Program-made: the position numbers and the translations under genes | Shown here: positions 20,974-63,164 of the stretch, one piece after another | How the letters are laid out: each line of letters opens with the position of its first letter | Position numbering within the stretch: the first letter of the stretch is position 1 | DNA from: Chrysomallon squamiferum | Lineage: Eukaryota; Animalia; Mollusca | DNA: 64,000 nt | Reading direction: 5' to 3' | Assembly: GCA_012295275.1 (NCBI GenBank) | Contig: CM022679.1 | Span: 22,258,001-22,322,000, forward strand | The notes under the pieces: model-generated | The model's database searches: none | Seen by the model: only the letters and a program-made list of their open reading frames with translations | What the model was told of the DNA's origin: nothing

Positions 20974-22569
20974 ATGTTTCCAAGTTCCTTTATATCATGT
21001 TTTTTCTTACTGTTACTTACATCTGAATGGTACCAGTCTGTTGATATGACTGCACTGATACACACAGATAAATTAAGAGTCGAACAAAACAAAGATCTGG
21101 AAACTTTGAAAAAGGAATTATTTGAGAAAGAAAAACAGTTTCATAAACTCGCTGATGAAATTTCGATCTTGAGAAGTAATCTTGGTTATGAGAAAATATT
21201 GAATCTTTGTCTAGAATCTGCTCGAGAAGTATTTTCTAAACAGGAAGAAAATCTGAGAGAAACTTTGTGGAAAAAGATGAGAACACGACTACGTACTGAA
21301 AAAAGTAAAAGTTCGTTAGCAGCGAGAGATCTGAGTACAAGACTAAAACTCTTAGAAGGTAAAATAGAATTTGTTTTTGATTTTCAAAATACTTTGAATA
21401 TTACTAAATTTGTTTTAAATATTTTCCCTATTCCTTCTATTCCAATTTTTAAGATATTATTTCTTTATGAATTAACAACATCGGTGATAAAGAATATATG
21501 GCATTATAATAAAAAAATAACACGAGATGAATCATGGATTTTGTGCTTTTTAAATGTAAAAAAAAGAAGAAATTAAACAGTTAAATGTGGTTTTATTACT
21601 CTAATTTATTTATTTATTTATTTATTTATTATTATTATTAATATTATTATTATTATTTATTTATTTATTTATATATTTACTTATTTATTTATCTTATTAC
21701 AAGATATGTCGATTGACACAGATGAACTGCAGTATACCTCAGCTGATAAAAGAATATTTCAGATCGTCAACACTATTAATTCTACTTTTAAGGAAGATAA
21801 CAAGCTATCTAGACCACAGGGCACTGTCACTCTGAACCAGGAAGGAGGTAATACCGTCGTTGTTATCGATTATAATAATAAATGTGTGAAATCATTTTGG
21901 TATGATCCATTTAAAGACAGAGAATACAGAAGCAGGCTAACAGTTGTTTGTTACGACAGAATGGCAAAACTCAGTGAAACACAGGTTGTCGTTGGGTGTT
22001 GGAGTAGTCCAAGGATACAAATAATAAATGTAAACCCTAGTTTGAGTCTTCATTCAACAATCAAAACACCAGAAAACAATAAAGGTCTGGATGCCATGGT
22101 GTCGTCAACTGAAAATGGTCTAGAAAAAAGAATTTTAACAGGTCATGAAAACGGTTTGTCAGTTATCAACCTAAAAGGTGAACTCGTGAAAACAATGGAT
22201 ATGGACATCACAGGAAGAAATTACACAAAGTATCCACGTTTCCTGACATTAACACCTGCTGGTAATGTAATTATTTCAGACAGTAAAATGAGTCTTGTTT
22301 GTATCTCGTTAAACAGAACTGTGTTATGGAGATACAATCAGAAAAGTTCTGCAGGTGTTACCAGTGATGCACAGGGAAACGTGTATGTTGCTGTCTACTC
22401 ATACAATAAAGTAATTCTTTTGTCTCCTGAAGGAAAGTTTATAAAAAATGTTTTAACAAGCAGTGATCACTTAAAAGACCCGAATGCCATATTCTATGAT
22501 TCCAGTACAAGACGACTTTATATTACAGAGTACTTGACTGGGCTGATCAAAATATATGAACATCAATGA
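20974..22569 (+). CDS. Gene A1: predicted secreted coiled-coil + NHL-type beta-propeller protein, 416 aa; exons 20974-21358 and 21704-22569
   Basis: ATG then hydrophobic signal (MFPSSFISCFFLLLLTSEW) and heptad-like segment. Donor G|GTAAAA and acceptor AAG|AT join in phase 1 (GAT), in frame with the 287-aa ORF containing NHL-like blades (P.FLTLTPAGNVIISD, GVTSDAQGNVYVA..YNKVILLSPEGKFI). Confidence 0.9.
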
Positions 22570-23954
22570 CTGACATTAAAACATAAATTACTGTATTCTT
22601 ACTGAACACATAAGAATCTCACTGCAAGTGTAAATGTTAAATTCATATTTTAAACTATGACTGAAAGTTTGAGTTAATATAAATTATTTCTTATTCTTTT
22701 TAGGATTTCAAGCAAATGTATGACGCCATTGACTGAAGTTGAGAAATTAATTATTTCTCAAATAAAAAAGTATTCTTTTGTTTATGATTTCAGAAATGCT
22801 TAAATGAAATATTTAAGAATAAGGTTTTCCTTATGGGGTTTATCATGCATCACTTAACCTTATTTTTGACGGATTGTGAGATTTCAACTGAGAATTATTA
22901 CGGCATATTATATTTTGTTTTTGGTTTTATATTTTATACACATTTGTGTATTCCAGAAAACATTCTGACAGCTGATTCGTGAGGAGAATTTATAAATATT
23001 TATTTATTTATTCGGTTGTATATAAGATTTCACATTGTAGATATTATGTTGTTTTGACATCGTAGTACTGGATATTATGTTAGATAGCGTTATATTATGT
23101 AATCAGAACAAGAAAACAATCAGAATAGTTATATTTACGAACGAAGTACATGTACATATGGATAAATTATAAAATAAAAGCTAGCGTTGGAAAACATTTC
23201 GTTTTATTTTTACTTTTTGTTTTGTTTTGTTTAGTTGATAATATTTTTCTAAGTCTAATGGTACAATAGCCTTCTGTTACATCAGTAGAATTTACTTTGC
23301 AATATTTTCTTTAATTTGTGTTTTTTTTTATCATTATTAGTATTTTTTGTTTATTTGTTTTCACTGAATTTGCGAAGCTAACAAATGGTTTTCTTTCTAT
23401 TTATTTATTTAATAGTAAATTTCTAATTATAGAACTTAATTAATACGTCTTGATTATGCAATCCACCTTTGAAAGAATCAGAACAAAAATCGCATGGTCA
23501 TCCAATGTCATTATTAGACTCAGTGACTCAATTATCTCATCGCTATAAAACAAATATCATTATATTTATTTGGGTTGTTGATACCATGTCAAAATTTATT
23601 GATGTTCAAAATTCTCTCTCTCTCTCTCTCTCTCTCTCTCTCTCTCTCTCTCTCTCTCTCTCTCTCTCTCTCTCTCTCTCTCTCTCTCTCTCTCTCTCTC
23701 TCTCTCTCTCTCTCTCGCTGTCTCTCTCCCAAATATCTCCCTACAACTTAGGTGAAACAGTTGGTTTTTTAAAAAACCTATTATACATATATGTGTGTGT
23801 GTGTGTTAATGATTCTGAAATAACATACATTATTCTATAAAATAAACAACACACCCTTAAACAAAATTTTATAATCCGAAGTAAATATCACACCTTTAAC
23901 ATGGAGGATGTTCGATATTTTGAGAAAATATTTAAATCGAAATTCAGAGGAAAT

Positions 23955-24712
23955 ACTTTCTTAATTCAACCTTTAGGTTAAGACTGCTATGTATAACCTT
24001 TCTTTGGTGATCTCGTAGTATGAACATTGAGGTTGACTGATGTCGTCCTAATTGGATGAAGCATCTTTCATATAACCTACCATGATCAGAAAAAAAAAAG
24101 TCACTTTATTCTTATAAAATCAGCAACGAACACATTTCCTTGGGATCACACTACACACAGTATGGATCTAATATATTATTGTCCCAGAAAGTTTTTCTTT
24201 TCTGAGTGATCAGATCAGATAGAGAGATTTATTACATACAGTGATGTGACCAGCAGGTGTTAATTTAAAATAATAGTTAGTTGTTTGGGGTTTGTTTTAT
24301 TTTTTACCTACAATATCAGTATCCATTGATTTTATGATTTCACCTTGATTATTAATAATTGTTAGACTGTTTTTACAAATCGTGTTTCAAATCGAAACTG
24401 TGATTGCATTGATAATGTGTTATGTCTTAGTTTTATTTTTCATATTTAAATGCAGATTCAGTTTAGGATTTAGATTAATTGACTCTATCTTTGTTTTATC
24501 GTAGTAAATTACAGCGTTTTATTTTTGCTGTCCTATGCCAACCAGTACTTCCTAAATATAACTTAGTTTTAACATTTTCGGAATCATCAGTCACAGTAAT
24601 TTCTCCGGTCTGGAAAATACAGGAAAACACTGTTATCGTCAACAATAGAAATTTTAGCTGTGTTCGTGACTGTAAACTCTCGCTTGCGAAACCAGAGAAA
24701 TCAGTCCTCACC
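23955..24712 (-). pseudogene. Decayed propeller exon-2 relic
   Basis: Manual minus-strand translation: LTIINNQGEIIKSMDTDIVGK..YFKLTPAGHI..ITQKRKTFW..QGNVFVADF..YYEITKERLYIA, with stops and frameshifts. Ends approximate. Confidence 0.75.
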
Positions 24713-61290: not shown

Positions 61291-61391
61291 GAGGAATTTT
61301 TGTGCAACAATTAGACGCTAGTCTGGAAACTCAACTCTGGTTTTAATTCATACAAATTTCCTAGTTTTAAAAATTCTGTAAAATTTATCTC

Positions 61392-63164
61392 ATGATGAAA
61401 TATTCAGTTGTATGCTGTATATTAGGACTTTTATTTCTGACCGATGGCTGCTGGAGTGAAGACTTTCTCTCTCGTTTGAAAGACAAAATGAAAATGTTTA
61501 CACAAAAAAGAAGCAGTTCACAAGGGTCACTGAAGGAGTACCTGCAGAACAAGACAAATGAGCAGCTCAAAGGTATGATTGAAACCATGGTTCTGAAAAC
61601 ACGTCTTAGTTTAGAGAAAGCGCAAAGACAATCTTTGAAGTCTTCATTAGAAACGGCTATTAGACAGCTCGATGTTTTGAAAGATGCACTCTACAAGACG
61701 CAAAAGAAGGGGTGTTTGTGCACTCCCGTGAACCGCAACAATAGCAAGTACACGTCACCTACAGAAACAGAAAGAAGATATTCAACAGGTAAGATATATT
61801 ATTAAAATAAACTTAAAATATTAGGGGTACATTAAAATAAATGTTACATCAGGACTGCTGGTAATTATGTCATCAAAATATACGTATTATGTTACGATTA
61901 GAGGTAATTATATTTTAAAATAAAGTGATAATAGTGTAAAGACTATAGGTAAATTATATTATGATTATATGTAATTATTACGCTAAAATGAACTCATTAT
62001 ATTTTGACTATAGATAAATAAGTCATTAAAAATAATTTATTATTTTTTTTTATAGAGGCAATTTTGTTATAAAAATAAACTCATTATATTATGCTTACAG
62101 GTATTAATGTTATTTAAAAAAAAAAAGCTAAACGCATTATAATTGCAGGTATAGATTAGATTAGAGGTAAAAATGTTATTAAAATAAGTTAGTATAATTA
62201 TTTATAAATATTGAGACTACAGAAAGTATGTTATCAAAATAAACTTATTATAATTATTACGATTATATGTTAAAATGTTTTATTATTCATTTCAGTGGAA
62301 GAAAATGCCACGAGAGGAGTGAAAGAAGAAAACATGACAAGAACAGTACGTTTGATAAACAAAATTGTCAGTCAGTCTACTGAAGATAACATGGTTCCCA
62401 TGCTGATGGACGTCATTGTTCTCCATCAACAACAAACAGACGTCGTCGTAGTCAGTGACCTTGAAAACGTCTGCGTGAAGTCGTTTTGGGAGGATCCACA
62501 AGAAATGGGGAAGTTCAAAAGCAGCCGGTTGAATTTTGATGTATCTGGTATCGTCGGGAAAATGGCGAAATTTAACGAAAACCAAATTGCGGTTACTGTC
62601 GGTAACAGCGTTTTGAGTGACATATACACCATCAACGTAAATCCAGAGTTGTCAGTCGATCACGTTATCAATCATCAGAGAAATTTCGTATGGAGTATCT
62701 GCGCAATGTCTTCACGAACCAACGCCTCTAACCAACAAACAACGATGCTTGGTCACAGCGAGGGATTAGAACTGGTGGACAAGAAAGGCAATCTTACTGA
62801 GGCTCTGGAAATCCCCAACCACTGTGAAATGCGCCCATTTCACTTAGCGCAGCTACCGAACGGTAACATCGTTATATCGAATGGCGAAAGCGGACTGGTT
62901 TGTATAAGTCTGAAAGGGCAAGTCGTGTGGAGGTACGACATTAGGAGACCTGTGGGTATTACCAGTGATGACGACGGAAACGTTTACGTTGCGAACATTG
63001 AAAATAACGAAGTGATTCAGCTTTCTTCTGATGGCGAGTTTGTCAAAGAGGTTCTGACTCAGGCAGATGAAGTTGAACGTCCTGCGGGTCTGTATTATGA
63101 TTCAGCTAAAGAAAAACTCTATGTAGCCGAGATCAGTGGCTCGATTAAAATATTTCAAATGTGA
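61392..63164 (+). CDS. Gene E: divergent predicted secreted coiled-coil + NHL-type propeller protein, 421 aa; exons 61392-61788 and 62296-63164
   Basis: Signal MMKYSVVCCILGLLFLTDGCWS; LKTRLSLEK..SLKSS motif shared with the other exon 1s; donor CAG|GTAAGA and acceptor TTTCAG|TG in phase 1; NHL blades RPVGITSDDDGNVYVANIENNEV and RPAGLYYD. Confidence 0.9.

Follow-up and report, generated by a model that had tools for sequence, protein, structure and literature searches.

The 64,000-nucleotide stretch of the Chrysomallon squamiferum genome analysed here (contig CM022679.1 of assembly GCA_012295275.1, positions 22,258,001 to 22,322,000 of the forward strand; hereafter the window) carries, at 20974..63164, a cluster of two-exon genes with one shared architecture: an NHL beta-propeller behind a signal-like start and ~90 residues of helical stalk, with neither a RING nor a B-box. 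This architecture is well supported and, for two of the subfamilies (A and B), is backed by RNA. The cluster represents a real, expressed and lineage-restricted gene family, built from a well-known fold in a domain arrangement that was not found described. The reading we favour, and hold to be reasonably likely, is that the products are secreted, probably oligomeric, ligand-binding proteins with an NHL propeller head. They would enter the secretory pathway via a cleavable signal peptide, be held as coiled-coil oligomers outside the cell by the heptad stalk of ~90 residues, and bind ligands through the six-bladed propeller, perhaps in extracellular recognition of an immune or symbiont-related kind. 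An immune or symbiont-recognition role is a guess prompted by the layout and the tandem expansion.

The stop-to-stop open reading frames (ORFs) of the cluster are of two recurring kinds, one of ~130 codons with a hydrophobic start followed by a charged, helix-like segment, and the other of ~290 codons and propeller-like. Gene models were derived from the ORF listing, a scan for frame-keeping GT/AG pairs and explicit spliced models, and every copy gave one consistent splice solution, a GT..AG phase-1 intron after 128–132 codons. Eight full-length genes result (three of type A, two of B, two of C and one of E), together with one exon-1 relic (D) and four propeller relics, all four on the minus strand. 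The six intact genes have introns of 332–507 nt, an exon 2 of 866–872 nt and products of 416–421 amino acids (aa), with ~1.25 kb of coding sequence per gene; exon 1 measures 128.3 (A), 131.3 (B, C1) or 132.3 (E) codons before the phase-1 intron. Splice donors fit the consensus (AAG/GTAAAA in A1, GAG/GTAATT in C1, CAG/GTAAGA in E1), and the acceptors are preceded by pyrimidine-rich tracts. A tblastn search with a RING- and NHL-bearing protein of the gastropod Gigantopelta aegis (P0001, described below) recovered exactly eight full-length propeller exons and four partial relics, and no further propeller copies in 20–64 kb of the window. The original prediction for this stretch had proposed the same eight full-length copies from four subfamilies plus relics, with the same exon sizes, intron phase and product lengths for the six intact genes; the first part is borne out by the ORF listing, the splice scan, the spliced models and tblastn, and the second by splicing the coding sequences as modelled.

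Exon 2 can be assigned confidently, on the basis of profile matches and a structural model, to the canonical six-bladed NHL propellers. All four exon-2 translations tested exceeded the curated Pfam cut-off of 20 bits for NHL (PF01436), with scores of 31.2 (A1), 45.1 (B1), 32.9 (C1) and 32.2 bits (E1). Matches to SGL (15.4–25.2 bits, cut-off 26.3), Arylesterase (12.8–18.5, cut-off 21.3) and Vgb_lyase (12–18.2, cut-off 50) were partial and below cut-off, as were those to Teneurin-NHL and similar families. The AlphaFold2 (AF2) model from a six-sequence alignment (predicted local distance difference test, pLDDT, 89.7; predicted template modelling score, pTM, 0.89) contains 24 strands arranged as six four-stranded blades. 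Among Protein Data Bank (PDB) sequences, phmmer placed the designed Pizza propellers and PknD first (from E 7e-16), followed by Thin, TRIM2, TRIM71 and TRIM3 at 2.5e-09 to 4e-07. Structural comparison gave Thin, TRIM2, TRIM3 and TRIM71 as the top Foldseek matches (E 3e-13 to 1e-10, template modelling score, TM, 0.69–0.76), and the highest VIA-align scores (Z 27.7–28.5 over 245–261 residues) were to Lin41, Thin, TRIM3, TRIM2 and TRIM71, led by the Lin41 NHL domain (Z 28.5, root mean square deviation 2.6 over 260 residues). Pizza, PknD and Brat (~26–27) and then PAL, lactonases and DFPase (23.3–25.0) ranked lower. The propeller thus appears nearest to the TRIM-type NHL domains by a margin of 1–4 Z units, at 13–19% identity to solved NHL domains. 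Pfam, AF2, Foldseek and VIA agree on the TRIM-type propeller head that had been predicted, and none of them points to a non-propeller fold. The propellers of A, B and C are basic (isoelectric point, pI, 8.5–9.4) and that of E1 is acidic (4.8). Strands are more conserved than loops (0.69 vs 0.52), an expected pattern that does not locate a binding face.

Alignment of the nine exon-1 copies revealed the shared motif L..L.YEK...(C/S)(L/M).S, as anticipated, with M1, L66, L70 and S82 invariant. AF2 modelling from this nine-sequence alignment gave a low-confidence helix at residues 3–31, a break and a single uninterrupted helix at residues 38–130 (~93 residues, pLDDT 74–86). Over residues 39–80 of A, B and C, Leu, Ile, Val, Met, Phe or Tyr make up a fraction of 0.75–0.88 at a/d positions vs 0.10–0.30 elsewhere; the heptad pattern fades toward the propeller and is weak in E1. 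The coiled-coil segment of the original prediction accordingly finds its counterpart in a predicted long helix with heptad character, through which the products may self-associate. A cysteine near the stalk end is aligned in C, D and E, and another lies within the motif of A, B and C; both would be compatible with interchain disulfides.

No known domain was detected in exon 1. No Pfam family exceeded its cut-off in five exon-1 translations, RING and B-box included, and exon 1 contains too few Cys and His residues for a B-box. The RING region of P0001 (residues 1–108) gave no tblastn match anywhere in the window at E<=10, so that Pfam and tblastn agree with the predicted lack of both domains. 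A word-indexed search of longer proteins with exon 1 yielded none of 410 candidates at E<=10, a profile search of the PDB reached a best E of 0.22, and the ESM Atlas gave no usable match. Pairwise hhalign comparison of exon 1 with the RING and linker of P0001 returned a probability of 0.1%, and that with a B-box–coiled-coil–NHL protein (P0008) 2.5%.

The N-terminus is signal-like. The start codon is the first in-frame ATG after a stop in all nine exon-1 copies, and it is followed in all five subfamilies by an uncharged apolar run of 8–14 residues, the best 10-residue Kyte-Doolittle mean of the core being 2.3–3.2. By a heuristic assessment, small residues occupy plausible −3/−1 positions a few residues past the hydrophobic core in all copies, and in B and E the core is followed by a helix-breaker and small residues, as in cleaved signals. 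Beyond residue 35, the best 19-residue window does not exceed 1.06 in the six intact products, which show no second transmembrane-like segment. Exon-1 identity between subfamilies is 18–41%; the hydrophobic start is nonetheless retained, a combination that, read heuristically, would correspond to the usual evolution of signal peptides. The hydrophobic N-terminal segment is therefore present in every subfamily, as had been proposed, and a cleavable signal peptide with entry into the secretory pathway is a heuristic prediction from it.

The exon joins were examined in four public RNA libraries of one study, which contain 25–39% of the sampled words of 20800–27300, approximately the exonic share there; RNA contigs were examined over 23729–33758, which holds A- and B-type copies only. 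In contigs from all four runs, 25878 is followed directly by 26367, leaving out 488 nt (GT..AG after shifting the cut by 2), exactly the predicted B1 intron, 25881–26368. These B-type contigs differ from B1 at 4–11 positions per ~820–1470 bases and derive from B1, B2 or an allele. One of them starts at 25293, 194 nt upstream of the ATG at 25487, and is colinear with the genome across an in-frame stop at 25454–25456; no upstream coding exon is therefore added in the B type. For the A type, a single contig passes from 29893 to 30226, which matches the predicted A2 intron within three ambiguous letters; it shows 16 differences from A2 in 569 nt and perhaps does not come from A2 itself. Because these contigs skip the introns, they do not represent contaminating genomic DNA. 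A and B types are transcribed and spliced as modelled, so that the predicted joins are confirmed in four of four runs for B and by one contig for A, and no upstream RING or B-box exon spliced to exon 2 was seen in the B- or A-type contigs. Separately, low-depth contigs (~3) in two of the four runs cover 24177–24548 on the minus strand, a relic between A1 and B1, and could reflect either weak transcription or DNA carry-over.

The genes lie in the following arrangement. A1 (+) consists of exon 1 at 20974–21358 (signal-like N-terminus and helical stalk; 128 codons and 1 nt) and a propeller exon, stop included, at 21704–22569 (product 416 aa). B1 (+) occupies 25487–25880 and 26369–27240 (421 aa), with exon 1 defined by the splice model and joined to 26369 in the RNA. 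A2 (+) occupies 29512–29896 and 30229–31094 (416 aa), its exon 1 resting on the splice model and the RNA join, and its exon 2 on tblastn, the RNA contig and the model. C1 (−) has exon 1 at 35491–35884, from the splice model, and exon 2 at 34267–35138, which tblastn also recovered (421 aa). B2 (+) has exon 1 at 38113–38506, placed by exon-1 alignment and splice model, and exon 2 at 38995–39863, placed by tblastn and splice model (420 aa). A3 (+, 42258–42642 and 42995–43853) and C2 (−, 47211–47601 and 45984–46866), whose first exons were located by exon-1 alignment and comparison with the sister copies, share the two-exon structure and are each broken by a frameshifting deletion in exon 2, of 7 nt relative to A2 and of 1 nt relative to C1, respectively. 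E1 (+) occupies 61392–61788, from the splice model, and 62296–63164, also recovered by tblastn (421 aa).

The propeller relics detected by tblastn with P0001 lie at 23962–24515 (degenerate, in two pieces, E 1.2e-07), 32261–32341 (short, E 4e-04), 45286–45366 (the duplicate of the preceding one, E 3e-04) and 49151–49332 (E 3.7e-05). The D relic, at 59559–59885 (+), retains the signal-like N-terminus and the motif, has no propeller exon of its own, and reaches a stop 45 nt before a donor-like CAG/GTAAAT at 59930/59931. Taken up to that site, a good donor-like sequence (59559–59931), D precedes E1 in the same orientation, and the E1 propeller exon (62296–63164) might in the past have used D as an alternative first exon, or might still do so.

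Self-comparison of the window showed that part of the cluster arose by a segmental duplication of ~12.6 kb bearing B, A, a relic and C. The duplicated segments, 24928–37552 and 37549–48625, are 95% identical over the B and A parts, 85% over C and 77% past C. The match between 20656–22589 and 29218–31112, at 92% identity, marks an older A copy. Protein identity between subfamilies is 33–45%. Whole-gene dN/dS by the Nei-Gojobori method is 0.16–0.47 overall and below 1 in every pair: 0.42 for A1/A2 and 0.47 for B1/B2 (just 7 and 4 changes), and 0.16–0.25 among A, B and C, the last values being rough, with synonymous sites saturated (dS >1.3 or undefined between subfamilies). Exon 1 is less constrained (0.31–0.62) than exon 2 (0.16–0.42). 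As the ratio is below 1 for exon 1 and for exon 2, both exons behave as coding sequence under purifying selection. Whole-gene diversifying selection was considered and rejected, dN/dS being below 1 in all pairs.

Queried with B1 exon 2, the word-indexed search gave four proteins, two of them from Gigantopelta aegis and two distant NHL proteins. The closest protein outside the window is G. aegis LOC121379283 (XP_041363762.1; P0001), of 395 aa, with 45% identity over 97% of B1 exon 2; the second G. aegis match is a 218-aa fragment. The N-terminal 108 residues of LOC121379283 comprise a RING (Pfam zf-RING_UBOX, 31.5 bits) and a short linker, and similarity to the full-length copies of the window is limited to residues 109–395. 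In the tblastn alignments it begins at residues 109–120, within a few codons of the exon-2 boundary. A profile search added ORF calls of 276–318 aa that match exon 2 alone (including P0005 and P0006) at 43–44% identity; one contig carries two of them in tandem, a further three are on other contigs, and none of these calls shows a 5' exon. P0008, a distant match, came from this search as well. In the ESM Atlas, exon 2 falls among clusters of NHL proteins of ~270 aa, the known members of which come mostly from molluscs, and a metagenome scan with the propeller profile gave 95 pattern matches, none of which was confirmed. Sequence and literature searches thus revealed no full-length match to a described family, in keeping with the expectation; in the open-access literature, no description of a signal, coiled-coil and NHL layout was found.

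The maximum-likelihood tree of 11 propellers is star-like, with four of eight inner branches supported, all of them within pairs. A, B, C, E, the Gigantopelta pair and a pair of exon-2-only ORFs form one radiation without resolved order. The signal/stalk exon is common to A–E and therefore predates their split. The nearest relative being a RING-NHL protein whose similarity starts at the exon-2 boundary would fit an origin linked to RING-NHL proteins, in which a signal/stalk exon and the 5' exon of a RING-NHL gene could have been exchanged at a shared phase-1 intron. The original prediction had suggested that a signal-peptide exon was possibly put in front of a TRIM-type NHL exon; the link to RING-NHL proteins is supported through LOC121379283, and as to the direction of the swap, the star-like tree of 11 propellers favours neither the RING form nor the signal/stalk form as the earlier one.

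Several observations weigh against secreted, oligomeric binding proteins. The signal-peptide call is a heuristic one that combines hydrophobicity with (−3,−1) positions, the A copies are without a charged n-region, and the 19-residue windows of C1 and D (2.17 and 2.02) could act as signal anchors. N-glycan sequons, which had been noted as frequent, are so in number (3–7 per protein) and not above chance: shuffled sequences have means of 4.2–4.6, and the fraction of shuffles reaching the observed count is 0.12–0.85. Sequon enrichment was accordingly rejected as evidence of secretion, the count being what composition predicts, and neither sequon counts nor whole-gene dN/dS supports a recognition role. 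Over the whole stalk, heptad periodicity is only weakly above shuffles: the observed value is reached by a fraction of 0.011–0.12 of shuffles in A, B and C and of 0.41 in E1. In fold, the nearest relatives are the intracellular RNA- or protein-binding TRIM-NHL domains, and the conserved propeller cysteines also occur in the RING-bearing relative, with no secretory-specific disulfide signature. RNA support covers the B and A types in a single study, and the C and E gene models are predictions from the sequence.

The products could instead be cytoplasmic, descended from TRIM/RING-NHL proteins by loss of the RING, their N-terminus not being a signal and their propeller still acting as an intracellular binder of RNA or protein. 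The best fold matches (TRIM71, Thin, TRIM3 and TRIM2), the RING on the nearest sequence relative and the chance-level sequons are in line with such a descent, and the basic A, B and C propellers would suit nucleic-acid binding. It is nevertheless an unlikely explanation: five subfamilies with so divergent an exon 1 all retain a hydrophobic core of 8–14 residues directly behind the first ATG, exon 1 resembles neither the RING and linker of P0001 nor the B-box–coiled-coil–NHL protein in hhalign, and the E1 propeller is acidic. Alternatively, an uncleaved signal anchor could make these type II membrane proteins, whose stalk would keep the propeller clear of the membrane, at the cell surface or within the lumen of an organelle. 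The windows of C1 and D and the weak heuristic cleavage sites of A and C would allow this, but the uninterrupted apolar runs are shorter than a typical membrane span and B and E carry the helix-breaker and small residues after the core, which makes membrane anchoring rather improbable. That the family comprises secreted enzymes with six-bladed propellers (of the lactonase, SMP-30, PAL or DFPase type) rather than binding proteins is most improbable, since the SGL, Arylesterase and Vgb_lyase matches and the VIA scores to lactonases, PAL and DFPase, which speak for it, all rank under the TRIM-NHL domains and under the family cut-offs.

Other features surround the cluster. GC content is 0.26–0.33 across it, and the window is AT-rich with numerous microsatellites, resembling an invertebrate genome in its general appearance; Rfam gave no match within the window. 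Three paralogous, intron-poor genes for secretin-family seven-transmembrane (7TM) receptors, at 5982–8234 (+), 50043–52232 (−) and 56665–58913 (+), flank and interrupt the NHL genes (Pfam 7tm_2, E 1e-31 to 4e-27). Their products each begin with an ectodomain of ~440 aa that is rich in cysteine and shows a faint Somatomedin-B-like match. The genes at 50043–52232 and 56665–58913 form an inverted duplicate with 80.6% identity; the latter is split into overlapping ORFs (56665–57564 and 57486–58913) by a frameshift or short intron, and a 34-nt unit, repeated 29 times in tandem, lies between the two (52960–53947, 92% matches). Closer to the start of the window, an ORF at 12525–13205 (+) with a KY-like immunoglobulin-like domain (PF23265, E 3e-19) is probably one exon of a larger gene. 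Two adjacent ORFs at 17108–18266 (+; 192 and 159 aa) have no Pfam match at E<=0.01 and are reminiscent, in sequence, of a domesticated or decayed transposase. Dispersed repeats of 300–660 nt with 78–97% identity, which occur both in the initial 20 kb and in the spacers between the NHL genes (3839–4142 vs 15818–16121, and 14921–15538 vs 27741–28388 and 40376–41033), are probably transposable-element fragments.

A more speculative proposal joins the two gene families: the secreted NHL-propeller proteins would be ligands co-evolving with the three interleaved orphan secretin-family receptors, as a lineage-specific ligand–receptor cassette that arose when a signal/stalk exon replaced the RING exon of a cytosolic E3 ligase. 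It echoes the pairing of NHL-bearing teneurins with adhesion G protein-coupled receptors, and we consider it very unlikely to be correct.

If the favoured reading of secreted propeller proteins is correct, the cluster would exemplify an exon exchange that retargeted an intracellular binding module to the extracellular space and was followed by tandem expansion, and it would place beside FREPs, C1qDC proteins and lectins a further candidate class of molluscan humoral binding proteins. If the products are cytosolic, it would be one more lineage-specific expansion of RING-less NHL proteins.

In animals, NHL propellers are familiar chiefly as the part of intracellular TRIM E3 ligases that binds substrates or RNA. 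The cluster genes share with the TRIM-NHL proteins (TRIM71/Lin41, TRIM32/Thin, TRIM2, TRIM3, Brat and Mei-P26) a C-terminal six-bladed propeller, within the Foldseek TM range given above and at VIA Z 26–28.5, and a long helix before it. They differ in having neither RING nor B-box, in the hydrophobic signal-like N-terminus, in a helix without detectable similarity to the B-box–coiled-coil–NHL protein or, by profile, to PDB entries, and in being simple two-exon units of ~420 codons. Gigantopelta LOC121379283 has a related propeller from the same radiation as A, B, C and E; unlike the cluster genes, it starts with a RING and a linker unrelated to exon 1 and has no signal-like start. The Gigantopelta hologenome report counts TRIM among the gene families that have expanded in this snail (PMC7895826).

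An animal protein closer to the predicted destination of the cluster products is NHLRC3 ('Regina'), described as secreted, with a signal peptide and a single domain, a six-bladed NHL propeller for which PAL, an enzyme of the secretory pathway, served as the modelling template (PMC6277453). Going by that description, the view taken in the original prediction that NHL proteins are cytoplasmic was overstated (PMC6277453). NHLRC3 resembles the cluster products in its six-bladed NHL propeller, its signal peptide corresponds to the one predicted for them, and it is described as having no stalk. It was not among the matches of the word-indexed and profile searches with exon 2, and no direct comparison with its sequence was made.

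Among other propeller proteins, tachylectins and tectonins are beta-propeller lectins; the cluster propellers show no sequence or fold link to them. The secreted recognition proteins of invertebrates, such as FREPs, C1qDC proteins and collectin-like lectins, consist of a signal, a coiled-coil stalk and a globular head. C1qDC proteins have been characterized as abundant secretory proteins expanded by tandem duplication. The cluster products differ from all three groups in their head, an NHL propeller in place of a fibrinogen, C1q or C-type lectin domain, and resemble them in layout, in tandem expansion and in the divergence of their paralogs.

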